This document shows, one piece after another, positions 9,679-50,510 of a DNA stretch of 64,000 bases (positions are counted from its first letter, which is position 1; each line of letters starts with the position of its first letter). Made by a program: the position numbers and the translations under genes. Below the pieces are notes generated by a model that worked only from the letters and a program-made list of their open reading frames with translations, was not told the DNA's origin and did no database searches. Source of the stretch: Dehalococcoidia bacterium (GTDB lineage: Bacteria; Chloroflexota; Dehalococcoidia; Lucifugimonadales; UBA3495); NCBI GenBank assembly GCA_963664375.1, contig OY761449.1:2845695-2909694 (forward strand), in the 5' to 3' direction.

Positions 9679-9731
9679 TGGGAACGTGTCGTTCCTTAAC
9701 TAGCACTGGACGACGGAGGTGCAAGCTCCAA

Positions 9732-10430
9732 ATGGCCCGACTCTTCGACCTGCACATCCACACCACCAAGGGCAGCAGCGACAGCAGCCTTACCCCCGAA
9801 GACATGGTGCTTGAGGCCGACCGGCTGGGACTGCGGGGGCTTTGCATCACCGAGCATGCCGGGCCGTGGGATCGCCACGAATTCCAGAAATTCGCCGCCC
9901 TGCACAGCGTGGTGTTGATCCGGGCGATGGAGGTCGAGACCGACATGGGCCACATGCTCGCCTTCGGCCTCGACCGGTACCAGGCCGGGTTCAACAAGGC
10001 GGCCCAACTGCGCCAGGCCGCGACCGCCGCCGGGGGATTCGTCGTCTCAGCCCACCCGTTCCGTGGAGTGCTCAGCGGCAACGGCAACCGGTCCCGCGCC
10101 CTGATCTACCAGTCCGTTCCCGACGAACTGCCGGAAACGCCCGAGGATGCCCTGGACCACCCGGTCTTCAAGCTGGCCGACGCCGTCGAGGTGGCCAACG
10201 GCGGCACCATCGACCGCGAGAACGAATTCGCCTTCAAGGTCGCCGGACTGTTGGGCCTTCCCGTAACCGGCGGCAGCGACGCCCATTCTCTCCACGGCCT
10301 GGGTAAGTTCTTGACCGAGTTCCACGACGAGATTACCACCGAGGCGGAATTCCTCAAGGCACTGCACTCCGGCCAGTACCATCCCGTGACCGGGCTGCGC
10401 AACGGGGCCGTCAAGCGCTACACTGCCTGA
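9732..10430 (+). CDS. PHP (polymerase/histidinol phosphatase) domain metal-dependent phosphoesterase
   Basis: The internal ATG at 9732 gives MARLFDLHIHTTKGSSDS...ITEHA...GGSDAH, which matches the PHP motifs. Confidence 0.75.
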   Translation: MARLFDLHIHTTKGSSDSSLTPEDMVLEADRLGLRGLCITEHAGPWDRHEFQKFAALHSVVLIRAMEVETDMGHMLAFGLDRYQAGFNKAAQLRQAATAAGGFVVSAHPFRGVLSGNGNRSRALIYQSVPDELPETPEDALDHPVFKLADAVEVANGGTIDRENEFAFKVAGLLGLPVTGGSDAHSLHGLGKFLTEFHDEITTEAEFLKALHSGQYHPVTGLRNGAVKRYTA

Positions 10431-10448
10431 ACCCAAGGCCGTTTAGCA

Positions 10449-10562
10449 GTTCCCTCTCCCTCCGGGGGAGGGTTAGGGTGGGGGCGTCTCCCTGTGGCTG
10501 CAAATTCGCCAATGCCAGCGATTTCACCCTCGCCCCAACCCTCTCCCTCAAGGGAGAGGGAG
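10449..10562. repeat. inverted pair of REP-like units
   Basis: gttccctctccctccgggggagggttagggtgggggcg (10449-10486) faces tcaccctcgccccaaccctctccctcaagggagagggag (10524-10562). Confidence 0.9.
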
Positions 10563-10683
10563 AGTTAAGGGGCCTTGGCCTACCCCCATTCGCTTTTGCT
10601 GACATTTCGCCGTCGAATCCAGGCCAGCTCCGTGCTACACTTTATGCCGCGTCGCCCCAAGTCCGGGCGCAAACGGGAGTGCG

Positions 10684-13623
10684 ATGGCCTCGATTCACCA
10701 ACTGATTTCCCCTCTCGATCAGGTCTACGTTTCGCTGGACCTGGAGACCACCGGCCTCGACTACGAACGGGACACCATCCTCGAAATAGGGGCGGTGCGA
10801 TTTCGCGGCGACGAGGTGCTGGACACCTTCGAGACCTTCGTTAACCCCGGCCGGCCAATCCCCGACCACATACAGCGACTCACTGGCATCCAGCCCAGGC
10901 AGGTGGAGCGGGCGCCCGCGTTTCCGGTAATCGTCGGCGACTTTGCCGAGTTTTTGGGGCCTCACCCCGTTGTCGGGCATAACATCCAGTTCGATCTGCG
11001 GTTTCTGTCCTCCCACGGCCTTCCGGTAGCCAACGCCGCCTTCGACACCATGGATCTGGCGACCGTGTTCCTGCCCAGTTCGCGGCGCTACACGCTCAAG
11101 CACATCGCCGACCAATTCGGCGTGGAACTGCGCAATCACCGGGCGCTGGACGACGCCGTGGGAAGCAAGGAAATATTCCTGCGGCTGCTGCGCCTGGCGG
11201 CGGAGCAGGACGGCGGACTGCTGGCCTACATGTCGGAGATCGCCCGCCGCAGCAACTGGCCGCTCCACCCGGCCCTGTCCGGCCTTGCCGCCGCGCAATC
11301 CACGTCACCGGCATCCGTAGGGCCAACCGGCCTGAACATGGAGCTGCTGGCCCAGAGAGTAGAAGCGCCGGAAAAGCGGCGTCCGGCTGACGATCTGGAA
11401 CACGTGGGCGTTGAGCAAATTCACGGTATGCTGGGCCCGGAGGGCCCCTTCGCCAAGGCATTCGACGGTTTCGAGCACCGCCCGGAGCAGGAAGAAATGC
11501 TCGACACCGTGTCCGACGCCATCTACAACCAGCGCCACTTAGCGGTTGAGGGCGGCACCGGCGTGGGCAAGTCCCTGGCCTACCTGCTTCCGGCGGCCCT
11601 GTTCGCCGTGTCCCGGGGCCAGCGGGTGGTAGTCTCAACCAACACCATCAACTTGCAGGAGCAACTGATCGGCAAGGACATCCCGGCCCTCAAGCAAGTG
11701 CTGGAGGATTCCGGCCTGATGGAGCCCGGCGCACTGAAGGTCGCGCTGCTTAAGGGCAAGGCCAACTACCTCTGCCTGCGCCGCTGGCAGCAACTCTCGC
11801 GCAGCGAACTGTTGACCGCGGACGACGCCAAGCTCCTGTCCAAGACGGCGGTATGGCTGCAAGACACGGCGACAGGCGACCGCGGCGAAATCAACCTGAA
11901 CGGGCGCGAGGTACCAACCTGGAACCACGTATCGGCGGGCGAAAAGGGTTTCTGCCTGGACATGCGGGACGGCTCGCCCTGTTTCCTCCGTGCGGCCCGA
12001 CAGAGGGCCGAGCAGGCCCATATCATCGTCGTCAACCACGCCCTGCTCATGAGCGACATGGTGTTCGAGGGGCTGATACCGGAATACGACACGGTCATCA
12101 TCGACGAGGCCCACCACCTGGAAGAGGCCGCGACCAACCAGTTCGGTTTCGAGATACAGCAGGGCGAGTTCGACCGTATCTGGGAACCGGCCGGGAGGCT
12201 GTGCCTGGGCGTCATGCAGGCGCTGACAGACAACGATCTGGAATCGGGAATCGCTGACACCGGCCAGTCGGTCGCCGCCGCAGTGGAGGCGGAAGCGCCC
12301 CGGCTACGGGAAACGTGGGGACAACTCTTCACTGCCATCGAGGGACTCCACGCCAGCCAGCGAAAGGGGAGAAACCAGCAGCGCCGCCCGAACCGGAGCC
12401 AGGAGGCTGCGCCCTCTCAGGGAGACCAGAACCAGCTCCTTATAACCCCCGATGTCCGCAACTCCCCTGCCTGGTTCGACCTGTATCTGGCGTGGGAGAA
12501 CCTGAACACCCGGCTGGGACAGGCGGGAATCGCCCTACGAAACGTCCGCAACTTCCTCGACGCCAACCGGCTCCCGGCGGCGCAGGACCAGCAAGCCCTG
12601 ATGATGGAGGCGGCCTCGCTGGCCGACGGTCTCGAGGAACTGTCCATGCGTCTGGGTTCCGTCTTGGGCGAAGCATCACCTGCGACGGCCGAACAGGGTT
12701 CAGGCGGCGACGCTTCTGACCAAGCCATACACTGGGTAAACGTGAACCCGTCCCAAGGAACCATCTCCCTGCACTCCGCGCCGCTGGACGTCAGCCCGAT
12801 ACTGGCCGAGAAGCTGTTTGCCGAGAAGGATTGCGTCATCCTTACCAGCGCCACGCTGACCGCCGGGGGCAGTTTCAATTTCCTCAAGCGGCGGCTCGGG
12901 CTGGAGGACGACGCAGGCGAGTTGCTGGTGGGTTCGCCATTCGACTACGAGCGGGCGGCCCAAGCCCTGATTCCCGACGACATGCCCCAGCCCAACGCCA
13001 ACGGCTACGTGGCCGCCACTGCCGACGTGCTGGCCCAACTGGGGCAGCGGTTGCAGGGACGCACCATGGCGCTGTTCACGTCCCACTCATCACTGCGCGC
13101 GGTTGCCCAGCGGTTGCGTTCACAACTGGAGCCCCACGGCATTCCCGTCCTGGCGCAGGGGGTAGACGGGTCGGCGCCATCCGTCATGGCGGCGTTCAGC
13201 GAGGAGCCGGGGAGCGTGCTGCTTGGGACGGCCAGTTTTTGGGAGGGCGTGGACATGCCGTCGGGCCTGCTCAAGGCCCTGGTTATCACTCGTCTGCCGT
13301 TCCAGGTTCCCAGCGACCCCATCGTGCAGCGCCGCTCCGGGCTGTATGACGACCCGTTCAACGAGTATTCCATTCCCAACGCGATACTGCGGTTCCGGCA
13401 GGGCCTGGGCCGGTTGATTCGCAACAAGCACGACAAGGGAACCATCGTGGTGCTGGATTCCAGGATTTCCAGCCACGGATACGGGCAGGCGTTCCGCGAC
13501 TCGATGCCGCCGTGTCATCACACTCCGTGCTTTACCTCCAACGTGGGCATGCTGGCGGAAATGTGGCTCGATGGCGGCCGACAGGCCCGGCAGGGAGGAA
13601 GGCGTGGCAACCGCGGACGTTAG
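10684..13623 (+). CDS. dinG: DinG-family ATP-dependent helicase with an N-terminal DnaQ-like 3'-5' exonuclease domain
   Basis: 979 aa. The Exo I motif is YVSLDLETTGL, the Walker A is GGTGVGKSLAYLLPA, and the DEAH box is IIDEAHHLEE. GGGAG precedes the ATG. Confidence 0.85.
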   Translation: MASIHQLISPLDQVYVSLDLETTGLDYERDTILEIGAVRFRGDEVLDTFETFVNPGRPIPDHIQRLTGIQPRQVERAPAFPVIVGDFAEFLGPHPVVGHNIQFDLRFLSSHGLPVANAAFDTMDLATVFLPSSRRYTLKHIADQFGVELRNHRALDDAVGSKEIFLRLLRLAAEQDGGLLAYMSEIARRSNWPLHPALSGLAAAQSTSPASVGPTGLNMELLAQRVEAPEKRRPADDLEHVGVEQIHGMLGPEGPFAKAFDGFEHRPEQEEMLDTVSDAIYNQRHLAVEGGTGVGKSLAYLLPAALFAVSRGQRVVVSTNTINLQEQLIGKDIPALKQVLEDSGLMEPGALKVALLKGKANYLCLRRWQQLSRSELLTADDAKLLSKTAVWLQDTATGDRGEINLNGREVPTWNHVSAGEKGFCLDMRDGSPCFLRAARQRAEQAHIIVVNHALLMSDMVFEGLIPEYDTVIIDEAHHLEEAATNQFGFEIQQGEFDRIWEPAGRLCLGVMQALTDNDLESGIADTGQSVAAAVEAEAPRLRETWGQLFTAIEGLHASQRKGRNQQRRPNRSQEAAPSQGDQNQLLITPDVRNSPAWFDLYLAWENLNTRLGQAGIALRNVRNFLDANRLPAAQDQQALMMEAASLADGLEELSMRLGSVLGEASPATAEQGSGGDASDQAIHWVNVNPSQGTISLHSAPLDVSPILAEKLFAEKDCVILTSATLTAGGSFNFLKRRLGLEDDAGELLVGSPFDYERAAQALIPDDMPQPNANGYVAATADVLAQLGQRLQGRTMALFTSHSSLRAVAQRLRSQLEPHGIPVLAQGVDGSAPSVMAAFSEEPGSVLLGTASFWEGVDMPSGLLKALVITRLPFQVPSDPIVQRRSGLYDDPFNEYSIPNAILRFRQGLGRLIRNKHDKGTIVVLDSRISSHGYGQAFRDSMPPCHHTPCFTSNVGMLAEMWLDGGRQARQGGRRGNRGR

Positions 13624-32445: not shown

Positions 32446-34191
32446 CTACCTGCGCCCAAACTCCCGCTCCACGTGGTAGGAGCTGAAATGGACCATGGTG
32501 GGGCGACCGTGGGGGCAGGTGTGGGGGTTGGCCGTCGCTTCCAACTGCTCCAGCAGCGCCCGCATCTCGGCGTCGGAGAGCGCCTGCCCGGCCCTCACTG
32601 CGGCGTGGCACGAGATTGACGCGGCCATCACATCCTCTTTCTGCCGCGTCAGGCCCTCCAGCGTGGCCATGTCCAGGATGTCTATCAGCGCCTTGGCTGG
32701 GTCGTCCATGGACAGCACGGACGGCACCGAACGCAGGAGGTAGCCCCGCTCGCCGAACGGTTCCAGTCGGAATCCGTAGTCGGTGACGGCCTGCATGTTG
32801 TCCTCGAGGGTCGTCGCATGGGTGGGGGTCAACTCAACGTTCACTGGCGCAAGCAATGGCTGCGAGGCGGACTTGCGCTCCTCGCGTTCGGCGCAGATGC
32901 GGTCATAAATGGTTCTCTCATGAGCGGCGTGCTGGTCGACCAGGTACATTCCCTCCGGCCCCTCGGCCACGATGTAGGTCAGTTTGAGTTGGCCCACTAC
33001 CCGCAGCGGCACCGCCGGGCGGCCCAGCAAAGGCAGCGTTTCGCCAACCGGCGCGCCTGTCTGGAGCGGTGGGCTGGCCCCGCCGCCACCGAACCCTGAG
33101 ACCGGCATTCTCCCAAACCCGGCGCCGCTGCTACCGCCAAACGAACGGAACCCCGATGAGTTCCCCTGTTCGGGCGATGGGACGGCGGTGGGCACCGGCG
33201 AGTCGGACACCAGCGCGGCCCTCACCGCCCTCTGCGTCAGTGAGAACACCCGGTTCTCATTGTGGAAACGCACCTCCCGCTTGGCCGGATGGGAATTGAC
33301 ATCGACATCGGCGTAGGGAATCACCAGGTTGACGGCCGCCACGGGATAGCGCTTCACTTGCAGCAGACCGCTGTAAGCCTCCTCCACGGCAAAGGACAGC
33401 ATCCGGCTCTGGACCAGCCGGCGGTTGACGAAGAACGTCAGGTAGGTGCGGTTGGCGCGGCTGATGCTTGGCGCGGCGGCGAACCCCTCGACGGCGTACC
33501 CCGTCTCGTTATCCTCAGCGTCTACCTCTAGCATGCCCTGGGCCACCTGGGAACCGTAGACGGACAGCAGGGCCTCACGGGGCTGGCCGTTGCCCGGAGT
33601 CGTCAGGGAGGTCCGGCCATCGTTCACCAGCCGGAAACGGATTTCCGGGAAGGCCAGGGAATAGCGGCTGACCAGTTCCTGCACTCTGGATGTCTCGGCT
33701 TGGGCAGAACGGAGAAACTTGCGGCGCGCAGGCTGGTTGCCGAAAAGGTCAGAAACCTCGATGACGGTGCCCGCGGCGCATCCCTCGCTGCCCTCGTCAA
33801 CAACCTCGCCCCACTCCAGCGCCCTGCGGGAGCCGACCGTCTCGTCGCGGGTACGGGTGAGGACGGAGACTTTGGACACGGCGGCGATGCTGGGCAGGGC
33901 CTCGCCGCGGAACCCCATGGTGGAAACGCGGTCAAGCTGCTCAGCGTCGGTCAGCTTGCTGGTGGCGTGGCGATGGAACGCCAGGGGCAACTCGTCGGCG
34001 GGTATTCCCGCGCCGTCGTCTGCGACCCGGATCAGGCCGGTACCGCCGCCGCGGATTTCGACGGTGATCTGACTCGCACCGGCGTCAATGGAGTTCTCAA
34101 GCAACTCCTTGACCACCGACACGGGCCGCTCGACGACCTCGCCTGCGGCGATCCTGGCAGCCAGATCGGGGGGCAGAACCCTAATGGGCAC
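32446..34191 (-). CDS. mutL: DNA mismatch repair protein MutL
   Basis: 581 aa from a GTG start: IRVLPPDLAARIAAGEVVERPVSVVKELLENSIDAGA. Confidence 0.9.
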   Translation of the reverse strand: MPIRVLPPDLAARIAAGEVVERPVSVVKELLENSIDAGASQITVEIRGGGTGLIRVADDGAGIPADELPLAFHRHATSKLTDAEQLDRVSTMGFRGEALPSIAAVSKVSVLTRTRDETVGSRRALEWGEVVDEGSEGCAAGTVIEVSDLFGNQPARRKFLRSAQAETSRVQELVSRYSLAFPEIRFRLVNDGRTSLTTPGNGQPREALLSVYGSQVAQGMLEVDAEDNETGYAVEGFAAAPSISRANRTYLTFFVNRRLVQSRMLSFAVEEAYSGLLQVKRYPVAAVNLVIPYADVDVNSHPAKREVRFHNENRVFSLTQRAVRAALVSDSPVPTAVPSPEQGNSSGFRSFGGSSGAGFGRMPVSGFGGGGASPPLQTGAPVGETLPLLGRPAVPLRVVGQLKLTYIVAEGPEGMYLVDQHAAHERTIYDRICAEREERKSASQPLLAPVNVELTPTHATTLEDNMQAVTDYGFRLEPFGERGYLLRSVPSVLSMDDPAKALIDILDMATLEGLTRQKEDVMAASISCHAAVRAGQALSDAEMRALLEQLEATANPHTCPHGRPTMVHFSSYHVEREFGRR

Positions 34192-34200
34192 AATCGTCCG

Positions 34201-34638
34201 CTAAAAGAGAGGGACTATGGTGCCCTTGGCCCGGTACTGCTTGTCCTCGGAGGTGCCCGTCGCGACGAAATCCTGCACGATGCGGTAGATCCGTTCCATT
34301 TCCTTGTCCGGGGAACGCTTGAAGAAGTAAGGAGGCACCCATACTCCGCCAAATGCGGCCACCACCTCGGGGTAGTCGTCGATCACAAAGTCCGGCTCGA
34401 ATGGCACGCCCAGCTCCTCCAGGCGCTCGTGGAAATGGTGGGTTGGCTTCTCGTAAACCCCGCTGACGTAGGGTTCGAGCTGGTGCTTTTCTATAACCTC
34501 CCACCTTTCTCCCATTCCTGACCAGATGTAGATCTGGTGATTCTCGTCCAGCAACGCCTGAAAGGTTTCCTTGGTCTGGGGCCGGAGGCTGTTGTCCAGC
34601 CCCAGTATGGTGTAATCAACGTCAAAAAAGATATTCAT
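34201..34638 (-). CDS. HAD-superfamily hydrolase-like protein
   Basis: The internal ATG at 34638 gives MNIFFDVDYTIL, which is the DxD motif I. The stop lies 9 nt before the mutL start. Confidence 0.55.
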   Translation of the reverse strand: MNIFFDVDYTILGLDNSLRPQTKETFQALLDENHQIYIWSGMGERWEVIEKHQLEPYVSGVYEKPTHHFHERLEELGVPFEPDFVIDDYPEVVAAFGGVWVPPYFFKRSPDKEMERIYRIVQDFVATGTSEDKQYRAKGTIVPLF

Positions 34639-34821
34639 TCGCCGTATCAAGCCCTTCCAGTTCCGGCTTTCCCCCGCCAAGGACATCAACGGCCCTGGTC
34701 AGCAAAGGGATACCACTAGAGTATATTACAATCCGCCAAATGAATCAGCACCGGCGAGGCAACTTGACGACGCTCCCTGACGGACGCCGCGCATTGGTCA
34801 CGCGAGGAAGATGCCTGGGAA

Positions 34822-34961
34822 GTGTTTGCAAACCACAGACGGGCCAGAAATAGCCTGCAAAATCCCCTCTCCCTTGAGGGAGAGGGTTAGGGTGAGGGTG
34901 AACTCCCTGCATCAAATGACGCGGCTGTGCCCAATTCTTCCCGCCAATTGAGTTTGCAAAC
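34822..34961. repeat. REP core (34862-34900) flanked by gtttgcaaac palindromes
   Basis: gtttgcaaac occurs at 34824-33 and 34952-61. The core is atcccctctcccttgagggagagggttagggtgagggtg. Confidence 0.6.
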
Positions 34962-34966
34962 ATGGC

Positions 34967-35326
34967 CTACCCAGCCGCGGCTACCACCGAGTCGAGGACA
35001 GCCGCGCCACCCCCGACGAACAGTTGGTCTCCGACGCGCATCATGGGCCGCCTGACCAGCTTTGGTTCCTGCAACATCAGGCGGACCATCTCGTCTTCGG
35101 AAAGTTCCTGTCCGGCCAGGCCCATCTGCTTCAGACTGGGACTGCGGCGGGCGAAAATCTGATCAATGCCCGCGATAGCAGCCATCTCCCTTACCTCTGC
35201 TTCGGTGAAGGATTCCTTGAAATAGTCACGTTCATTGACTGCCAGGTCATTTTGCAGGAGAAACTCTCTCGCTTTCCGGCAGGTGGATCAACGGGGCCAC
35301 CAATAGAGATTTACAGGCTGGCTCAT
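34967..35326 (-). CDS. ArsC/Spx-family thioredoxin-fold protein with an in-frame TGA (35290-35288) replacing the first Cys of CxxC (candidate selenoprotein)
   Basis: ATG 35326 gives MSQPVNLYWWPR-TGA-STCRKAREFLLQNDLAVNERDYF...EVRE, joining in frame to the track ORF 34967..35185 (MAAIAG...LVRRPMM). Total length is 119 codons, the normal size for the family. Confidence 0.75.
35239..35282 (-). promoter_or_regulatory. SECIS-like hairpin 3' of TGA 35290
   Basis: In the mRNA, GCGAGAGA-GUU-UCUCCUGC (35272-35254) forms 8 pairs with one mismatch. An outer stem CUGCC/GGCAG spans 35282-78 and 35243-39. Confidence 0.5.
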
Positions 35327-35443
35327 GGTGTCCTCTTCTTGCGATTTGAGACCGCGCTTGGCTGATGTGACCGTCGCCATTTTATACCGGCGAGCGGCCT
35401 CCGAAAAACAGCACCCGCGCCAATTGGCGGGGTTTTTCAATAA

Positions 35444-35470
35444 TTCCCTCTCCCTCAATGGAGAGGGAGA
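35444..35470. repeat. REP hairpin core without the G-tract tail
   Basis: ttccctctccctcaatggagagggaga. Confidence 0.7.
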
Positions 35471-35504
35471 ATGAAAAGGCCCAGCGTGCCAATTGGCCGT
35501 AGTT

Positions 35505-38069
35505 TCAGGCCACATCGCGGGCCTTTTGCTGTAGTTCGTACAGCTTGTTCAGCGCCTCCAGGGGAGTCATGCTCGACAAGTCCAGCGACTTGACTGCGTC
35601 CGAAAGCTCCTGGCCCGGGGCGAACATCGACAGTTGTTGCGATGGCGTTCCCCGTCCCGGGCTGGCCCGGCCCGCGCCGCGCCGTGATTCCAGGTCGTCC
35701 AGCACCTCCCAAGCGCGGTTGACCACGCCGGGCGGCATCCCGGCGAGGCGGGCGACGTGAACGCCGTAGCTCCGGTCGGCCCCGCCGGGCACAATGCGGT
35801 GCAGGAAGACCACGTCGCTGCCCTCTTCCGCCACGGCCACGCTGAGGTTCCGGACGCCGGGGAGCGACGCGGCCAGTTGCGTCAGTTCGTGGTAGTGCGT
35901 GGCGAACAGCGTCTTGCATCCCAGCCTGGGATCGTTGTGGATGTGTTCAATGACCGACCGGGCGATAGACAGGCCGTCGTAGGTACTGGTTCCCCGGCCA
36001 ATCTCGTCCAGGATTACCAGCGATCTCGGCGTGGCCTGGTTCAGTATGGCGGCGGTCTCGACCATCTCCACCATAAAGGTCGACTGCCCGGTTGCCAGAT
36101 CGTCCTGCAACCCCACTCGCGTGAAGATGCGATCCACCAGGCCGATGCGGGCCTCGGCGGCCGGCACGAAACTGCCCACCTGGGCCAGCAGGGTGATGAG
36201 CGCCACCTGCCGGATGTAGGTGGACTTGCCCGCCATGTTGGGGCCGGTAATCACCAGTACCCTGGCCTCGCCGGACAACTCTACGTCGTTTGGCACGTAC
36301 CGGCCCGCGGGCAGAACGCGCTCGACGACGGGATGGCGTCCCTCCCGAATGCGGATTACCGGGCCGTCGTCAACCACTGGCCGCACGTACCCGTTGTCCA
36401 CGGCCGCCTGGGCCAGTCCGGCAAAAACGTCGGCCTGCGCGATGGCGTATGACGAGCGCGCGATCACTGCGGCAGATTCAGCCACCTGGGCACAGACGCG
36501 CCGGTAGACCTCGCCCTCCGCCTCGGCCAGCCTTTCGCGGGCGTTCAGGGCGAGGGACTCGTACTCCTTGAGTTCCGGCACGATGTACCGCTCGGCGTTG
36601 GTAAGCGTCTGCCGCCTGATGTAATCGTCGGGCAGGCTGCCGGTCTGGGACTTGGACACCTCGATGTAGTAGCCGAAAACCTGGTTGTAGCCGACTTTCA
36701 GGGAACGGACGCCGGTTCTTTCCCGCTCCTTCTGTTCCAGTCCCGCGATGTACTGCCGGGCGTTGACGCTGGCGTTTTTCAGCTCGTCGATCTCATCGGA
36801 GAAGCCTTGGCGAATCACGTTCCCTTCGCCGACACTGCCGGAAGGCTCCGGCTCGATGGCGGCCTCGATGAGCGCGACGACCTCGGGGGCGGGAACGAGT
36901 TCGGCCCTGAGCCACTGCATCGCCGGGCCGAGGGCATCGAGCTGCTCCCGCAGAAATGGTATGGCCTCGAGCCCCGACTTGAGCGCCAGCAACTCGCGGG
37001 GCGCGACCGACCCGGCCACTACCCGGCCCATGATGCGTTCCAGGTCGGCCACCCCGGAAAGTACCGCCGCAACTTCTCCGCGAATGATACCGTCCCGAAA
37101 GAGACAGTCCACGGCATCTAGCCTTTGTTCCACCTCGGCCAGGTTGAGCAGCGGTTGCCCCAGCCAGCGACGGAGCAGCCTCGCGCCCATGACCGTGCGC
37201 GTGCGGTCTATGGCAGCCAGCAGCGATAGTTCCCGTTCCTGCCCGCGGCCGCCCTCGAACAGCTCCAGGTTGCGGCGGGTGCGGGCATCGAGGGCCATGA
37301 AACGCTGCGTCGAATAGACCGCCAGGTTGTTCAACTGCACCTTCGCCGACTTCCTGGTACGGTCGAGATATTCGACGATGCTGCCAGCGGCGATGACCGC
37401 CCGCGGCAGCCCCTCGCAGCCGAACGACTCCAGGGTGCGAGCGTTCAGGTGGGACAGCAGGGCCGCTGCCGCCTGTTCAAAGTCGATTCTCCGGTCATCC
37501 AAGGAAGTGAGACGCCACGGCCCGTCGGGAATGTCCACATCCGCCGCCACGCCATCGTGCGCCAGTATCTCGGAGGGCGAAATCCGGCCCAGCTCCAGGG
37601 GCAGTTCGGCGAGGGGTATTTCCGTGGCGGCAAACTCGCCGGTAGTAATGTCGGCGTAGGCCAGGCCCGCGTGTTCGCCATCAACCGCCACCGCGGCCAG
37701 GTAGTTGTTCACCTGCTGGTCCAGCAGCGAGTCCTCGAACACCGTCCCCGGCGTCACCACCCGCACCACGTCGCGGTCTACGATCCCTTTGGACGCCGCC
37801 GGGTCGCTGAGCTGCTCGCAAATGGCTACCTGGTGTCCTTTTCGCACCAGCCGGACGAGATACGGCTCCAGCGAGTGGGCTGGCACGCCCGCCATCGGCA
37901 CCCGGAGATTCCTGCCGAGGTTGCGGCCAGTGAGGGTGATGTCCAGCTCGCGGGCGACCAAACGGGCGTCGTCGTCGAACGTCTCGTAGAAGTCGCCCAT
38001 ACGAAACAGGACGATGGAATCCCGGTAGGCATCCTTGATTTTCAGGTATTGGCGGCGTATGGGAGTCAC
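35505..38069 (-). CDS. mutS: DNA mismatch repair protein MutS
   Basis: 854 aa from a GTG start: TPIRRQYLKIKDAYRDSIVLFRMGDFYETF and Walker A GPNMAGKSTY. Confidence 0.92.
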   Translation of the reverse strand: MTPIRRQYLKIKDAYRDSIVLFRMGDFYETFDDDARLVARELDITLTGRNLGRNLRVPMAGVPAHSLEPYLVRLVRKGHQVAICEQLSDPAASKGIVDRDVVRVVTPGTVFEDSLLDQQVNNYLAAVAVDGEHAGLAYADITTGEFAATEIPLAELPLELGRISPSEILAHDGVAADVDIPDGPWRLTSLDDRRIDFEQAAAALLSHLNARTLESFGCEGLPRAVIAAGSIVEYLDRTRKSAKVQLNNLAVYSTQRFMALDARTRRNLELFEGGRGQERELSLLAAIDRTRTVMGARLLRRWLGQPLLNLAEVEQRLDAVDCLFRDGIIRGEVAAVLSGVADLERIMGRVVAGSVAPRELLALKSGLEAIPFLREQLDALGPAMQWLRAELVPAPEVVALIEAAIEPEPSGSVGEGNVIRQGFSDEIDELKNASVNARQYIAGLEQKERERTGVRSLKVGYNQVFGYYIEVSKSQTGSLPDDYIRRQTLTNAERYIVPELKEYESLALNARERLAEAEGEVYRRVCAQVAESAAVIARSSYAIAQADVFAGLAQAAVDNGYVRPVVDDGPVIRIREGRHPVVERVLPAGRYVPNDVELSGEARVLVITGPNMAGKSTYIRQVALITLLAQVGSFVPAAEARIGLVDRIFTRVGLQDDLATGQSTFMVEMVETAAILNQATPRSLVILDEIGRGTSTYDGLSIARSVIEHIHNDPRLGCKTLFATHYHELTQLAASLPGVRNLSVAVAEEGSDVVFLHRIVPGGADRSYGVHVARLAGMPPGVVNRAWEVLDDLESRRGAGRASPGRGTPSQQLSMFAPGQELSDAVKSLDLSSMTPLEALNKLYELQQKARDVA

Positions 38070-39332: not shown

Positions 39333-42161
39333 TTATTCGTCTTGCGTTCTTATCAATCGGGCTGGCCGGACATCCAGCCCGGGCAGCATCGGCGCCGGGT
39401 CGAATTCCTCGCTGGCCTCCATGTCGATTGCCAGTTGGCCGAACAGCGCGGTGGAGGCCACCATACCCCGCGGCAGACCGGCATCGAACCTTGCCACGCC
39501 CGGCAACTGGCCGTCGGCGGTCTGCACCGCAACTTTGGCGCCTTCGGGCAGGCCCAGGGACGCCGCGTCGTCAGGGTTGACGTCGACCCACTCCTCACGC
39601 TTGATGCGGTTGCGCTTCCCCTTGACAATTTCCATCTCACGATTCTGTTGCAACAGGACCCGTCCCGGCGCGAACCATAGGCCGTACCCCTCCGGCAATT
39701 CGGGCGCTGAAGCGAACAGCGAGGGAGTCAGCGGTATCGCCTTCATGTCGGAGAAGCCGTCGCTGTACAGGGCGGCGGTGCCAGGGTGGCCGGGTTCAGG
39801 GCAGGGCCATTGCAGCCCCTTGTGCTGTTTGCTCGCGTACAGCACCTGCGTGGGCTGGGGGCTTTCCAGTTGCGTCCTCAGAACTAGAGAACCCTCGCTT
39901 TCCAGCCTGCGATGGGAAATTCCGCCGTAGATGGGGGCTACCCTGGCGATTTCATCCATGATTTCCGCGGGCGTCAAAGATGGAAGGGCGTCCGGTTTTA
40001 TGCGTTGCGCCAGTTCCGTCAGCACGTGGCCTTCCGGCCTTGCTCCCGTTTCCCTGCGCGAAGCGGGGTTCAACCGTTGCACCCGGCGCTCCAGGTTGGT
40101 AAAGGTGCCGTCCTTTTCGGCAAAGGTCGGACGGGGCAGCACCACGTCGGCCCGCTGGGCCAGCGGGGTGAGGAAAGTGTCGTGCACCACCAGCAGGTCG
40201 AGATTGCCGAAAGCGTTGAATGCGTCGCCGATCTTTCCGTTGGTGAAATTGGGGCTGTCTCCAATGACCACCGTCGCCTTCAGTTTGCCGCTCGCGGCCG
40301 CGTCAACCATCTGCGCCACGGGCAGACCGGGAGCGTCCGGGAGCGCAGCGCCCCACGCCGACTCCAAGGCCGCGCGGTCGTCCGCATCGGATACCCGGCG
40401 GTAGCCGGGCAGGCGGTCGGGGACGCAGCCCACGTCCCAGGCGCCCTGTTCGTTGGCGCCGCGACGCATGGGATAGAGACCGGTGCCCGGCCGGCCGATG
40501 TTGCCGGTCAACAGGGCCAGGTTGACCATCGTGAGCACGCAGTTCCGGCTCTGAGTCCGGTCGATATTGTCCAGCCCGTATACAACGGCGGCTTCTGCGG
40601 CTTCTGCGAACATGCGGGCGGCAGCAGCGATTTGTTCCTCTGAGACCCGGGTTTCCTCAACGATTTCCGCCATTTCCCGGGAGCGCAGTGAATAACGGAG
40701 GGTGGCGGGGCTCTCGCAGTTCTCCTCCAGCCATTCTTCGCGTTCCAGCCCCTGGTCAACGATGCTCCTCAGGATGCCAGCCAGCAGCGTCAGCTCGGTG
40801 CCGGGCGCCGGGCGCAGCCAGATGTGGGCGTAGCGGGTCAGCTCAACCTCGCGGGAGTCAATCACTACCAGCTTTGTGTTCTTACGGGCGGCCCGCTTGA
40901 TGGGAACGGCAACCACGTTCTGCTCTTCGGTGACGTTGGTGTTGAACGCCAGAATACAACCCGCCCGCTCCAAGTCCCAGATGGGGTTGGTGGCCGCCGC
41001 CACCCCCAGCGAATCCTCCAGACCCAGCACCAGCTCCGGGTCGAGATTGGAGGTGTGGTCAACGTTGTTGGTGCCCATCACCACCCTGGCGAATTTCTGC
41101 GCCAGGTAATGCTCCTCGTTGGTGCTGGTGGGCGAGGTGAGCAGCGCGAACTCATCGCCGTTCACACTTGCGAGACGCTCGGCCACAAAATCCAGCGCCT
41201 CGTCCCACGTAGCTTCAACCAGAGCATCCCCCCGGCGTATAAGCGGCGTCTGGAGACGGGCGGAGTCGTTGACGAATTCCAGGCCGAACTTGCCCTTGAA
41301 ACATGCCTGGCCCTGGTTGGCCGGGGAGTTGATTTCCGGGACTGCCCGGATTAGCTCATCCTTGCCGTTGAACTCCAGGTTCAACTGGCAACCCACGGGA
41401 CAGTGGGGGCAGATGGAGCGCTCGACGCGACGCGCCTTCTCCCACTTGTGGCCCCTTTCCACCAGTGCGCCCACCGGGCATACGTCGATGCAGGAGCCGC
41501 AGAACTCGCAACCCGACTCCAGCAGCGACGTGCCGAAGGATGTCCCCACCAGGGCCTGGCCGCTCCGCTCGGTGAAGCCGATGGCGTCATCGCCCCGCAA
41601 CTCCTCGCAGGCGCGAACGCAACGCCCGCAGACTATGCAGAGGTTGTAGTCGCGGTCGTAAAAGGGATCGGACACCTCGAGGGGAATGTCGCGGTACTTG
41701 TAGCCCAGCGGCGACTCGAGGTTCATGCCCAGGTAGCGAACGGTGTCCTTGAGTTCGCAACGCTCGTTCTTGGGGCAGGTAACGCAGCGGTCGTTGACCG
41801 AAACGTGGCGAAGGCATACGTCGCTGGGGCCGCAGATGTCGATGCGATGGCAGGTCAGGCAGCCGTTGGGATGCTCGGCGATCAGCATCTCCATCACGGA
41901 ACGGCGCAACTGGTCCACGGCCGGGATCTGGTTATGCACCACCATCCCGTCCGCCACGGGCAGCGTGCAGGCCGCCGGGTATCCGCGCTGCCCTTCCACC
42001 TCGACGACGCACATCCGGCAGGCCGCGTAGGGCTTCATGCCGGGGTGGTAGCAGAGGTAAGGCAGGTAGAGACCCGCGTCAATGGCCGCCTCAAGGACCA
42101 TCTTGCCGGGCTGGGTGGTCACCTCAACGCCGTCTATGCTTATGGTGATGTCGTCGGGCAT
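39333..42161 (-). CDS. NuoG/FdhA-like Fe-S molybdopterin-oxidoreductase-fold subunit
   Basis: 942 aa with an N-terminal 2Fe-2S region (CYHPGMKPYAACRMCVVE) and 4Fe-4S motifs, followed by a MopB fold. The FDH active-site region reads GTNNVDHTSNLDP, with no Cys and no TGA. Confidence 0.75.
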   Translation of the reverse strand: MPDDITISIDGVEVTTQPGKMVLEAAIDAGLYLPYLCYHPGMKPYAACRMCVVEVEGQRGYPAACTLPVADGMVVHNQIPAVDQLRRSVMEMLIAEHPNGCLTCHRIDICGPSDVCLRHVSVNDRCVTCPKNERCELKDTVRYLGMNLESPLGYKYRDIPLEVSDPFYDRDYNLCIVCGRCVRACEELRGDDAIGFTERSGQALVGTSFGTSLLESGCEFCGSCIDVCPVGALVERGHKWEKARRVERSICPHCPVGCQLNLEFNGKDELIRAVPEINSPANQGQACFKGKFGLEFVNDSARLQTPLIRRGDALVEATWDEALDFVAERLASVNGDEFALLTSPTSTNEEHYLAQKFARVVMGTNNVDHTSNLDPELVLGLEDSLGVAAATNPIWDLERAGCILAFNTNVTEEQNVVAVPIKRAARKNTKLVVIDSREVELTRYAHIWLRPAPGTELTLLAGILRSIVDQGLEREEWLEENCESPATLRYSLRSREMAEIVEETRVSEEQIAAAARMFAEAAEAAVVYGLDNIDRTQSRNCVLTMVNLALLTGNIGRPGTGLYPMRRGANEQGAWDVGCVPDRLPGYRRVSDADDRAALESAWGAALPDAPGLPVAQMVDAAASGKLKATVVIGDSPNFTNGKIGDAFNAFGNLDLLVVHDTFLTPLAQRADVVLPRPTFAEKDGTFTNLERRVQRLNPASRRETGARPEGHVLTELAQRIKPDALPSLTPAEIMDEIARVAPIYGGISHRRLESEGSLVLRTQLESPQPTQVLYASKQHKGLQWPCPEPGHPGTAALYSDGFSDMKAIPLTPSLFASAPELPEGYGLWFAPGRVLLQQNREMEIVKGKRNRIKREEWVDVNPDDAASLGLPEGAKVAVQTADGQLPGVARFDAGLPRGMVASTALFGQLAIDMEASEEFDPAPMLPGLDVRPARLIRTQDE

Positions 42162-44696: not shown

Positions 44697-45263
44697 CTAC
44701 TCCACGCGGGCCACGCTGCCCAGCAGGATGCGCTCGACCTCCGGCAGCAGGGCCTCGGCGCGCTCGCGGCATTCATCGTCCGAGAGGCTGGACAGGGGAT
44801 GGGGAGCAACGGCGTACTCGTAGTCCGGCACGCCCATCATGCGGGTCATGGCCTTGGCGGTGTTGTTGAAAACGTGGGTGATGATGGACGCGGTGGGCAG
44901 GCCCAGGCGCTCCATTTCGATTCCGTCGTGCACACTGCACGAGCTGCATGAGCCTCAATCACCCACCCCAGTGATCAGCACGTCCACGCCGTTGAGCATA
45001 TCCTCAACGACGTCCGGCTTGGTCGGAAGGGAGGCGGAATGCTTGTTGAACATACGGACTTCCTTCAGTCCGTGCCTTTCCTGCAACATGCGGCCCAGTT
45101 CGTTGAGAACCTTGTCGGAGTTGGCCTTGGAGTTTTCCAGCAATCCGAGGGTCTTGCCCTCCAGCGAGCTGGGGCGGTCGTTGAGCCGGAAATCCCCCAC
45201 CTGGAGTTCCAGGCCCGCGGGATTCACAAGCCTGACGTTCCTGACCATAACCGTGTCTGCCAT
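44697..45263 (-). CDS. GrdB-like 'UGSC' protein with an in-frame TGA (44957-44955) in a U-x-x-C-x-x-C motif (candidate selenoprotein)
   Basis: Track ORFs 44955..45263 and 44697..44933 are in one frame, separated only by TGA plus 7 codons: ...VDVLITGVGD-TGA-GSCSSCSVHDGIEMERLGLPTASI.... AGGAGG lies 9 nt before ATG 45263. Total length is 188 codons. Confidence 0.75.
44926..44942 (-). promoter_or_regulatory. SECIS-like hairpin 3' of TGA 44957
   Basis: In the mRNA, UCGUGCA-GUG-UGCACGA is a perfect 7-bp stem starting 12 nt after the UGA. Confidence 0.5.
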
Positions 45264-48682: not shown

Positions 48683-49576
48683 CTAAACGTTGAGTCGCAG
48701 CTGGACGCCCGCCTTTTCCTCCTGGATGCGGGCTACGGCGTCGGAGTCCTCGGGGCCGTAGCCGCGGAACATGGCCTCTACGTGTCGCTGGTCTACCAGG
48801 TTGGAGAGGTCCATGGGGACGCCGTACTCGCGGCCCAGGTCGGTGGCCAGGCGCACGTCCTTGGCGGCCAGGGCGGTGGCGAAGCCGGGCTCGAAGTTGC
48901 CCTGGAACAGGAATCGGGAGAATTTTTCGGTCAGCCGACGGGAGCTGCCGGAACTGTGGGCTATTACGTCGGCCAGCGTCGCCAGGTCAACGCCCGCCTT
49001 GACGCCCAGCGTCAGGGCCTCGGACAGCAGCACGCCGATGCCCATGCTCATCAGGTTGTTGCAAATCTTGCAGACGGAGCCAGCGCCTATGTCGCCGCAG
49101 TAGACCACGTGGCTGCCGATGGCGCCCAAGGTGGACTCGAAACGGTCAAAGGTAGCGCGGTCGCCGCCGACCATCACGGCCAGGGTACCCGCCGCCGCGC
49201 CGTAGGTGCCGCCGCTGACCGGCGAGTCCAGCAGCGTCACGCCGCGGGCGGCGCATTCATGGTGCAGGTTCCGCACCACCGTCGGCGAGTTGGTGGAGAG
49301 GTCGAAGACTACCGTTCCGTCAGCGGCGCCCGCCAGGATTCCGTCCTCGCCCGCTATTACCGCCTCTACGTCCCTGGGAACGGGGAGGCTGGTTAGGACC
49401 GCGTCGTTGTCCGGGACGGCCGCCCTGGGACTGTCCGCCCATTCGGCGCCCATCTCCAGCAGGTTGGTTGCGGCCTCGCGACGCAGGTCGTGAACGGTTA
49501 GCCGGTGGCCGGCCTTGATCAGATTGGCGGCCATCGGATTGCCCATGTTGCCGGTTCCGATGAACCCTAGTTTCAT
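48683..49576 (-). CDS. NAD(P)-dependent 3-hydroxyisobutyrate/6-phosphogluconate dehydrogenase-family oxidoreductase
   Basis: ATG 49576 gives MKLGFIGTGNMGNPMAANL with GGAGAG upstream. The track ORF's extra 87 N-terminal codons only read through the tandem repeat. Confidence 0.8.
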   Translation of the reverse strand: MKLGFIGTGNMGNPMAANLIKAGHRLTVHDLRREAATNLLEMGAEWADSPRAAVPDNDAVLTSLPVPRDVEAVIAGEDGILAGAADGTVVFDLSTNSPTVVRNLHHECAARGVTLLDSPVSGGTYGAAAGTLAVMVGGDRATFDRFESTLGAIGSHVVYCGDIGAGSVCKICNNLMSMGIGVLLSEALTLGVKAGVDLATLADVIAHSSGSSRRLTEKFSRFLFQGNFEPGFATALAAKDVRLATDLGREYGVPMDLSNLVDQRHVEAMFRGYGPEDSDAVARIQEEKAGVQLRLNV

Positions 49577-50510
49577 CCTGCTCTCTCCTGTCTCCCGGTG
49601 TGCGTCCGTATTGTGGCCGTCCGGGACCACTGCCTCCTTGCGGGCGTCCGTATTGAGGCCGTCCGGAACCACTGTCTCCCGGTGGGCGTCCGTATTGAGG
49701 CCGTCCGGGGCCACTGTCTCCCGGTGACCGAGCGGGTTGAGGCCGTCCGGGACCACTGTCTGCTTGTGAGCGATCCGGTTGAGGCCGCCGCGAGTCGCCG
49801 GGTGTACCCCGTCCGCCCTGGGGCTGCCGGGGGGCATTGGCGGCGTCGGCGTTGCGGGGGCGGAGCCGCGGAGTGTCCTCGCCCAAGTCCTCGGGGCCGT
49901 AATCGCCGACGTTTTCGCGGCGGTACGGCGGCGCGTAGCCGCTGGGCGCAGCCCGGTTAGTTCCCTCTCCCTGCGAGGGAGGGTTAGGGTGGGCGCGTCC
50001 TTCCCCGCGGGCCGCCTGCTCGTCGAACGTCTCCTTGGCGATGCGGAAGGCGTTTACCGCGGCGGGCATCCCTCCGTAGAAAATCATCTGCGCGATGATC
50101 TCGGAGATTTCCTCCTGGGTAACGCCGATGTGCAGCGCGCCGGTAATGTGCCGCTTGATCATCTGGGGGCTGTGTCCCAGGACCACCAGCGCGGCGATGG
50201 TGCACAGGCTGCGGGTGCGCAGGTCGACGGCGGGGCGGTTGTAAATCTCGCCGTAGATTACCTGGTCCACCAACTGCATCACGTCGGGAGCAAGCTCCAT
50301 CATGGCGGCGGGCGGCTCAGGGTTGTTGTCCGGGCCGTAGTAGAGCATCCTGAATTCGGCGGCAGCCTCTTCCAGGTCTACTTCCTCCAGGACTAATTCG
50401 TACCCCTCGTCATCCCCTAAATCTCCGGCTTCCGCGTCGTCCTCGTCCGGGGGCTGATAGGGACGCAGATAGGGGTCATCCTCATCGTATTGAGTTGTCA
50501 CTGCCTTCAC
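49320..50510 (-). CDS. carboxymuconolactone decarboxylase (AhpD-like) domain protein with an uncertain 3' end
   Basis: The CMD core is DLRTRSLCTIAALVVLG...HITGALHIGVTQEEISEIIAQMIFYGGMPAAVNAF. After the domain the frame stays open through a REP unit and the 42-bp array, then 257 nt into the next gene. Confidence 0.55.
   Translation of the reverse strand: MKAVTTQYDEDDPYLRPYQPPDEDDAEAGDLGDDEGYELVLEEVDLEEAAAEFRMLYYGPDNNPEPPAAMMELAPDVMQLVDQVIYGEIYNRPAVDLRTRSLCTIAALVVLGHSPQMIKRHITGALHIGVTQEEISEIIAQMIFYGGMPAAVNAFRIAKETFDEQAARGEGRAHPNPPSQGEGTNRAAPSGYAPPYRRENVGDYGPEDLGEDTPRLRPRNADAANAPRQPQGGRGTPGDSRRPQPDRSQADSGPGRPQPARSPGDSGPGRPQYGRPPGDSGSGRPQYGRPQGGSGPGRPQYGRTPGDRREQDETRVHRNRQHGQSDGRQSDQGRPPANRSRPASRGRNQPAGDGRRMGGQSQGGRPGQRRGPNQPPRSQGRRGGNSGRGRNPGGRR
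49586..49800. repeat. 42-bp tandem repeat, about 5 copies
   Basis: The anchor ggccgtccgg recurs at 49615, 49657, 49699 and 49741, with a degenerate copy at 49783. The unit is about gcgtccgtattgaggccgtccggaaccactgtctcccggtgg. Confidence 0.85.
49959..49996 (+). repeat. REP-like unit inside the CMD-domain ORF
   Basis: agttccctctccctgcgagggagggttagggtgggcgc, translated in frame as ...AHPNPPSQGEGTN.... Confidence 0.8.

Follow-up and report, generated by a model that had tools for sequence, protein, structure and literature searches.

The window is the whole stretch of Dehalococcoidia DNA that was analysed, 64 kb in length. Between its mutS and mutL genes, a minus-strand reading frame of the ArsC/Spx family is interrupted by a TGA codon. 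The gene and its immediate surroundings contain the following features:

34967..35326, minus strand: complete coding sequence for a predicted selenoprotein of the ArsC/Spx family; 119 codons followed by a TAG stop, with its ATG at 35326 (from translation, Pfam and orthologs)
35288..35290, minus strand: TGA in frame as codon 13, proposed to encode selenocysteine (Sec), at the first position of the U-S-T-C redox motif
35331..35335, minus strand: Shine-Dalgarno sequence GAGGA, located 4 nt ahead of the start codon (ATG at 35326)
34967..35185: 72-aa fragment in the open reading frame (ORF) list
35288..35515: 75-aa fragment in the ORF list, ending ...LYWWPR
35505..38069: MutS, flanking the ArsC-like gene
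32446..34191: MutL, flanking the ArsC-like gene on the other side

Translation of the minus strand from the ATG at 35326 gives MSQPVNLYWWPR-TGA-STCRKAREFLLQ and continues to VVAAAG-TAG; the TGA at codon 13 is the sole internal in-frame stop of the 119-codon ArsC-family frame. The first-pass annotation had proposed that two fragments, the 72-aa ORF at 34967..35185 and the ORF ending at 35288, join in frame across this TGA into 119 codons. Both fragments are present in the mechanical ORF list, and the translation agrees with the proposed join. A search of the stitched protein against the Pfam ArsC family had also been suggested; with the TGA replaced by Cys, PF03960 is matched at 57.9 bits against a gathering threshold of 24.

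MutS and MutL flank the gene where the first-pass annotation had placed them, with an additional HAD-like ORF of 145-162 aa between the gene and MutL. All Dehalococcoidia loci share the gene order FdhA-like, FAD/NAD-binding, MutS, candidate selenoprotein gene, 145-162 aa ORF, MutL. Behind mutS there is a terminator-like hairpin, and the candidate selenoprotein gene is flanked by copies of a palindrome that occurs genome-wide; the gene appears to form a unit by itself. Outside Dehalococcoidia, the neighbours are NUDIX, DUF3783, GGDEF, AdoHcyase, TPR and hydrolase genes. The Smithella and Gemmatimonadota neighbourhoods are unrelated and contain no ars genes, obvious redox partners or functional hint. 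Since the neighbourhoods differ in other lineages, the mutS/mutL position is a case of synteny within one lineage and does not count as evidence for a function.

The TGA falls on the redox cysteine of the family. A phmmer search of PDB sequences places Spx at the top (1.7e-11), followed by YffB and ArsC, with matches over residues 5-105. In the alignment of LYWWPRU-STC-RKAREFL with solved Spx structures, Cys10 of Spx is the residue opposite the TGA, and the N-terminal UxxC occupies the same columns as the CxxC redox switch of Spx. This is the position that had been proposed from the sequence (the first Cys of CxxC), and the Spx N-terminal sequence used for that proposal is correct according to the alignment. 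When E. coli R773 ArsC (141/141 identical to 1i9d) is included in a multiple alignment, the TGA column corresponds to ArsC Cys12 and is invariant.

Structure prediction places the residue at a comparable site. An AlphaFold model of the full-length ortholog P0047 was built with a 71-sequence alignment and has a mean pLDDT of 90.9. The Sec position is found in the β1–α1 loop, directly ahead of helix α1; in the predicted structure, the Sec-equivalent residue is at the canonical CxxC site of the thioredoxin fold. A Foldseek search with this model returns only structures of the ArsC, Spx and YffB families (TM 0.67-0.81, with ArsC structures at 0.76-0.80), and the three subfamilies are not separable by this fold search.

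Conservation of the TGA was examined in an ortholog scan using one genome per species, which returned 40 loci. TGA is present at exactly codon 13 in 34/34 Dehalococcoidia/Smithella loci (32 Dehalococcoidia and 2 Smithella). These 34 TGA-form loci share the frame and length of the window gene; the frame stays open, and protein conservation extends to either side of the TGA, down to 40% identity. Three further short contigs (L044-46) also carry TGA at this column. In five Longimicrobium/Gemmatimonadota homologs, the codon here is TGC (Cys), within a C-T-T-C motif. The first-pass annotation had pointed to alternation between TGA and TGC in orthologous loci as informative; such alternation is seen, with intact frames and no pseudogene pattern.

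The region upstream of the TGA behaves as coding sequence. An ATG with a GAGG/GGAG core ahead of it is found 12 codons upstream of the TGA in nearly all Dehalococcoidia loci; in L028 the Shine-Dalgarno sequence is only AGGAAG. Upstream of the TGA, variability is 0.28 at third codon positions versus 0.16 and 0.14 at first and second positions; downstream, the corresponding values are 0.37 versus 0.16 and 0.08. The third-position excess on the upstream side indicates that the 12 upstream codons are translated in the ArsC-family frame. With 34 genome loci, three contigs and coding sequence on both flanks, conservation of the codon-13 TGA far exceeds chance.

Public gene calls for this ortholog group are all wrong: the gene is either shortened to fragments of 72, 89-99 or 96 aa which lack the active site, or carries W at the Sec position. 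Taken at face value, the shortening found in every public call would make the TGA a real stop, leaving a decayed gene or only a C-terminal fragment of 72-96 aa; the frameshift downstream of the TGA in the L031 ortholog could be read in the same way. This explanation is very improbable. The TGA, the frame, the 12 upstream codons, the ATG and the Shine-Dalgarno sequence are conserved in 34 species, and synonymous variation is seen upstream of the TGA. A C-terminal fragment would be left without strand β1 and the active site, and other stops or frameshifts have not accumulated as they would in a pseudogene. Most database homologs are 96 aa long because gene callers restarted at a TTG, codon 24; this start is TTG in relatives but CTG in the window, so that the 96-aa product cannot initiate here.

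The W entries have a different origin. The DNA of P0047 and its relatives has TGA where the database proteins show W; this is explained by application of genetic code 4 by the gene caller on short contigs. The W homologs were considered as genuine Trp variants and rejected on the basis of their DNA. Among the best 150 representative clusters of the wider family, 67 are shortened just past the motif, 64 have CxxC and three have W at the Sec column; W in these three clusters is probably another code-4 reading. Sec/Cys alternation at the codon-13 position is thus widespread.

A hairpin lies just downstream of the TGA. Three RNA features are located in this segment:

35254..35272, minus strand: SECIS-like hairpin GCGAGAGA-GUU-UCUCCUGC with an 8-bp stem, +18 to +36 from the U of UGA
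35264..35262, minus strand: GUU loop of this hairpin, 3 nt
35239..35282, minus strand: outer stem CUGCCGG/CCUGGCAG enclosing the hairpin, in the minimum free energy fold of the window sequence

The inner hairpin had been noticed in the first reading of the sequence; it is confirmed at 35272..35254, and counting from the U of UGA puts the loop G at nt 27, in agreement with the first reading. The family consensus, GCRAGRGA-GUU-UCUCYUGC, is found in essentially every Sec-form gene. In a 34-sequence alignment, 93.4% of hairpin cells are paired, compared with 32-75% when the 3' partners are slid, and 0/500 shuffles reach the observed pairing and covariation values. Three pairs change on both sides across the 34 sequences: covariation includes C-G to U-A in L028, G-C to A-U in L032, and A-U, G-U or G-C at the third pair. 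When no structure is supplied, the RNAalifold consensus consists of the inner hairpin helix alone. The loop G-U-U is invariant among Sec-form hairpins; a conserved G in the apical loop is a hallmark of published bacterial SECIS figures (PMC2398784).

Sec and Cys forms differ in this segment. The mean fold energy is -9.6 kcal/mol in Sec forms versus -4.7 kcal/mol in Cys forms, where the segment folds weakly and has no common structure. In stability, the consensus hairpin exceeds 99.9% of the synonymous ways to encode KAREFLLQ; since the hairpin lies within this conserved peptide, part of its conservation is at the protein level. The copy in the window is the weakest of the family (-6.1 kcal/mol, with one A·C mismatch) and beats only 93% of synonymous recodings. 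Searches of Rfam at gathering and permissive thresholds found no relevant family; the single match was a chance lncRNA hit (E = 0.66).

The outer CUGCC/GGCAG stem, which had been described together with the hairpin, is present in the window fold but is not conserved. It was rejected as a conserved element: 57.6% of its cells are paired across orthologs, which equals the shuffle mean, and it is absent from the RNAalifold consensus. The outer stem may add local stability in the window, where the inner stem has a mismatch. The SECIS predicted in the first-pass annotation is thereby narrowed to the inner hairpin, which is conserved with covariation. Judged from aligned sequences, this hairpin fits a bacterial SECIS, as it is conserved, covarying and absent from Cys forms.

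A second candidate Sec site is found in the same window, approximately 10 kb from the ArsC-like gene:

45263..44697, minus strand: UGSC-family selenoprotein gene with an in-frame TGA at its U-G-S-C motif (...ITGVGD-U-GSCSSC...)

The UGSC protein is matched by Pfam PF24696 end to end across the TGA (188.9 bits), and a 7-bp hairpin with a GUG loop lies approximately 21 nt downstream of the TGA. A brute-force scan for other TGA read-through ORFs (62.5% GC) returned mostly noise, and only the ArsC-like and UGSC genes are credible. A split FdhA-like gene on L041 was considered as a third Sec site and rejected; the split is a frameshift.

A search for selA, selB, selD and tRNA-Sec found none of them in the 64-kb window or the fetched loci (30 ORFs searched against Pfam; ARAGORN run on 37 loci and the window). 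In the Dehalococcoidia, one cultured member has selC together with genes for Sec synthesis and a Sec-specific elongation factor of the SelB type (PMC4918011), and Dehalococcoidia metagenome-assembled genomes (MAGs) are among the ten most selenoprotein-rich bacteria, with 46-49 selenoprotein genes each (PMC13326102). From the second selenoprotein gene and this literature on Dehalococcoidia, we infer that Sec machinery is present in this genome. The isolate name of one of the selenoprotein-rich MAGs (PMC13326102) is of the same style as those of the present loci.

UGA could also be decoded in this genome without selenocysteine, by read-through or by reassignment to Trp or Gly (codes 4 and 25) or to Cys through near-cognate reading. 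The W found in some database entries would fit such decoding, but these entries are the code-4 artefacts on short contigs described above, with TGA in their DNA. TGA is an ordinary stop in 6/23 Pfam-supported genes of the window, MutS included, which speaks against a reassigned code. Under reassignment there would be no need for a conserved hairpin at the SECIS position, and codon 13 is the position of the family redox Cys, for which Cys homologs exist. Decoding without selenocysteine is scarcely credible on these grounds.

The codon-13 TGA in the frame 35326..34967 (minus strand) is most probably a Sec-decoded UGA within a genuine selenoprotein gene; from the sequence evidence, we would give this reading a probability of approximately 0.9. 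The first-pass annotation had arrived at the same overall reading, an ArsC/Spx-family selenoprotein with U-S-T-C in place of CxxC and a SECIS, and this is supported by the Pfam match, the alignments, the orthologs and the hairpin.

Translation of the selenoprotein would start at the ATG at 35326, behind the GAGGA site. In all bacterial selenoprotein mRNAs, the SECIS hairpin is located inside the coding sequence. At UGA-13, a complex of SelB, GTP and Sec-tRNA(Sec) would bind the GUU-capped hairpin 18-36 nt downstream; the hairpin-bound complex would then deliver Sec in place of termination. The product would be a 119-residue thioredoxin-fold protein of the ArsC/Spx family, with U13-S-T-C16 at the N-terminus of helix α1. 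Sec13 and Cys16 may cycle between selenol/thiol and selenenylsulfide forms.

Selenoproteins with a UxxC motif are generally homologs of thiol oxidoreductases (PMC2398784). Based on the motif, its position in the fold and this UxxC rule, the ArsC-like protein is most likely a redox-active selenol/thiol protein, acting as a reductase or a redox sensor. Two more specific functions can be considered within this framework.

The protein might be an Spx-like regulator, i.e. a redox sensor that binds the RNA polymerase alpha subunit at its C-terminal domain and forms a selenenylsulfide instead of the C10-C13 disulfide of Spx. Its best NCBIfam match is Spx/MgsR (TIGR01617, 66.8 bits), its best PDB sequence matches are Spx, and U-S-T-C-R-K-A-R is close to C-T-S-C-R-K-A-R of Spx. 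The GOS family 'Arsenate reductase 2, UxxC' is assigned to cd03032, which we take to be the Spx subgroup. However, both Spx models are matched below their curated cutoffs (66.8 versus 75.05 bits for TIGR01617 and 56.1 versus 123 bits for Spx PRK01655), and the fold search gives Spx no preference over YffB or ArsC.

The functional residues of Spx provide a closer comparison; these include G52 (contact with the alpha C-terminal domain), R60 and K62 (activation), and a C-terminal ClpXP degron (PMC2801614). At the columns of Spx G52, R60 and R92, the residues of the window protein are Gly, Arg and Arg. In contrast, the K62 column contains Pro, within the family motif RSPS; Sec orthologs at a greater distance have Pro as the G52 equivalent; and the C-terminal extension of approximately 12 residues that bears the ClpXP degron in Spx is absent. 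A Spx-like function is doubtful; the comparison of residues and domains speaks partly for and partly against a regulatory role of this kind.

A further extension of this idea is that the protein is a selenocysteine version of the Spx-type redox switch, a sensor associated with transcription outside Firmicutes, with a selenenylsulfide replacing the disulfide, and that its position between mutS and mutL reflects a functional tie of redox sensing to DNA mismatch repair. This combination is speculative and would be a long shot.

Alternatively, the gene might encode a true glutaredoxin-coupled arsenate reductase ArsC, in which Sec replaces the catalytic Cys12. Sec13 aligns with ArsC Cys12 and Arg93 with ArsC Arg94, TIGR00014 (arsC) is matched at 49.8 bits, ArsC structures fit the P0047 model as given above, and JGI annotators call homologs 'arsenate reductase-like'. 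The TIGR00014 score is far under the arsC cutoff of 106, however, and the Arg triad is incomplete: ArsC Arg107 is replaced by Val and Arg60 is offset by 1-2 residues. ArsC has Ser at the column of the second Cys of the ArsC-like selenoprotein. In addition, no ars genes are found nearby in any lineage examined. Arsenate reduction by this protein is quite unlikely according to these alignments.

The main value of the redox-active selenoprotein reading lies in annotation, and knowledge of Sec biology is unchanged. With the gene corrected, each genome gains one selenoprotein, in a clade that already ranks with the bacteria richest in selenoproteins. The locus also provides a clean SECIS example from Chloroflexota that is supported by covariation; its 8-bp stem is compact and its loop is a GUU triloop. 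Finally, the NCBIfam selenoprotein model misses the Dehalococcoidia ortholog group.

Several known systems resemble the ArsC-like gene in part. The UGSC-family gene of the window (PF24696) has the same UxxC logic and a hairpin of similar size, with a G-U-N loop some 21-26 nt past its UGA; it differs in belonging to an unrelated protein family and has its Sec at residue 103 of 188. E. coli R773 ArsC (PDB 1i9d; TIGR00014) has the same fold, with Sec in the column of its Cys12, and its Arg94-Pro motif is kept. R773 ArsC and the 'ArsC 1' UxxS selenoproteins have CxxS/UxxS motifs, in contrast to UxxC here, and there is no ars operon at this locus. Spx/MgsR proteins (TIGR01617; PDB 1z3e, 3gfk and 7f75) are the best sequence and structure neighbours, with a nearly identical CxxCRKAR; they have Cys10 where Sec is found here, a longer C-terminus, and come from a different phylum.

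NCBIfam NF041106, 'ArsC family (seleno)protein' (ArsC_rel_Se_1), is an ArsC model that anticipates Sec and is matched over residues 10-105. The window protein scores 42.5 bits against a cutoff of 85 and is therefore outside the model. The shortened NCBI- and ENA-sourced copies fit this low score.

'ArsC-like' selenoproteins were noted in Deltaproteobacteria already in 2006. 'Arsenate reductase 2' (cd03032, UxxC) was listed as a prokaryotic selenoprotein family by Zhang & Gladyshev in 2008 (PMC2398784, Table 2), and an 'Arsenate reductase-like protein' (COG1393, UxxC, representative MAM02162.1) appears in a 2022 review (PMC9312934). The Dehalococcoidia gene shares with Arsenate reductase 2 an ArsC-family domain, Sec at the first position of UxxC, numerous homologs with CxxC, and a conserved G in the apical loop of the SECIS. 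While the published examples are marine metagenome reads, the genes found here form a syntenic Dehalococcoidia ortholog group, with Smithella in addition. By domain and motif description only, the Dehalococcoidia gene is a predicted member of the UxxC arsenate reductase-like selenoproteins. Since UxxC ArsC-like selenoproteins were published in 2008, this kind of protein is known, and the Dehalococcoidia group is a further, mis-called member.

The first-pass annotation's first candidate selenoprotein is presumably a UGSC-family gene, which ORF callers break into two pieces (102 aa and 72/78 aa).

44697..45263 (-), UGSC-family selenoprotein gene, 188 codons, PF24696 match
44957..44955 (-), in-frame TGA of this gene, falling at the U-G-S-C motif

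PF24696 matches across the TGA with 188.9 bits, and a UCGUGCA-GUG-UGCACGA hairpin is found ~14-30 nt 3' of the UGA.

For the ArsC-like selenoprotein gene, in six close relatives (L001-L004, L006 and L011), single-sequence minimum free energy folding favours a longer alternative hairpin, CUGCAGGAAGGC…GUUUCUCCUGCAG, in the region +8..+38 after the TGA; this overlaps the conserved GUU-loop hairpin. The alternative uses an AGG/AGA Arg codon that is missing in the window. It is not conserved outside these six loci and is therefore probably incidental, although it may represent a lineage-specific variant of the SECIS.

A 22-nt palindrome, CCCTCTCCC-N4-GGGAGAGGG, is present eight times in the window against an expectation of zero from shuffled sequences.

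10539, 26922, 32310, 34865, 35446, 54033, 56488 and 58115, palindrome copies, 22 nt each

Two of the eight copies were checked (34865-34886 and 35446-35467); both are intergenic and lie on either side of the ArsC-like gene. The palindrome resembles a REP-like repeat or a family of terminators.

Directly downstream of the ArsC-like gene is an uncharacterised ORF.

34201..34689 (-), uncharacterised HAD-like ORF

This ORF adjoins the ArsC-like gene in every Dehalococcoidia locus and in three short contigs that carry the TGA form. It is more conserved than MutS or MutL (68-100% identity), and its translation probably begins with the Met of codon 18, giving 145 aa. The ORF has no Pfam match; read by eye, MNIFFDVDYTIL at its start resembles HAD phosphatase motif I (DxDxT).

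Three relatives carry an additional 3-5 kb between the ArsC-like gene on one side and the HAD-like ORF with mutL on the other.

L023, L025 and L034, between ~6360 and 9700-11700, extra DNA

In L042, a DDE transposase pair sits between mutS and the FAD/NAD gene. Insertions are therefore tolerated within the conserved gene block around the ArsC-like gene.

The FdhA-like gene is unbroken in both the window and L042; on the sister contig L041 (2941-5768), it is called as 810 + 107 aa.

39333..42161 (-), FdhA-like gene, 942 aa

A Sec codon in the split L041 gene is ruled out: this is a frameshift, with the protein continuing in the +2 frame. Either the contig is misassembled here, or the gene is a pseudogene at strain level. 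The ArsC-like ortholog in L031 (6001-6353) is 95% identical over its best segment and is frameshifted after about residue 55; either long-read assembly introduced the shift by error, or the gene is a true pseudogene in this genome. In the 545-aa database protein P0173, an ArsC-like C-terminal stretch of 80 residues occupies 462-542, and the N-terminal part looks MutS-type, judging by eye from the first 30 residues. P0173 probably arose when a gene caller read on from mutS into the selenoprotein gene behind it via a frameshift or missing stop. A 93-nt 'tRNA-Pro (tgg)' called by ARAGORN within the MutS coding region of L029 (5698-5790, -) is most likely a false positive.

The window also encodes a protein with a CMD/AhpD-like domain.

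49320..50510 (-), ORF with CMD/AhpD-like domain (PF02627, residues 75-160), 396 aa

No in-frame TGA is evident in this ORF, which is probably over-extended at its N-terminus; elsewhere, the CMD/AhpD-like family includes CxxU selenoproteins.
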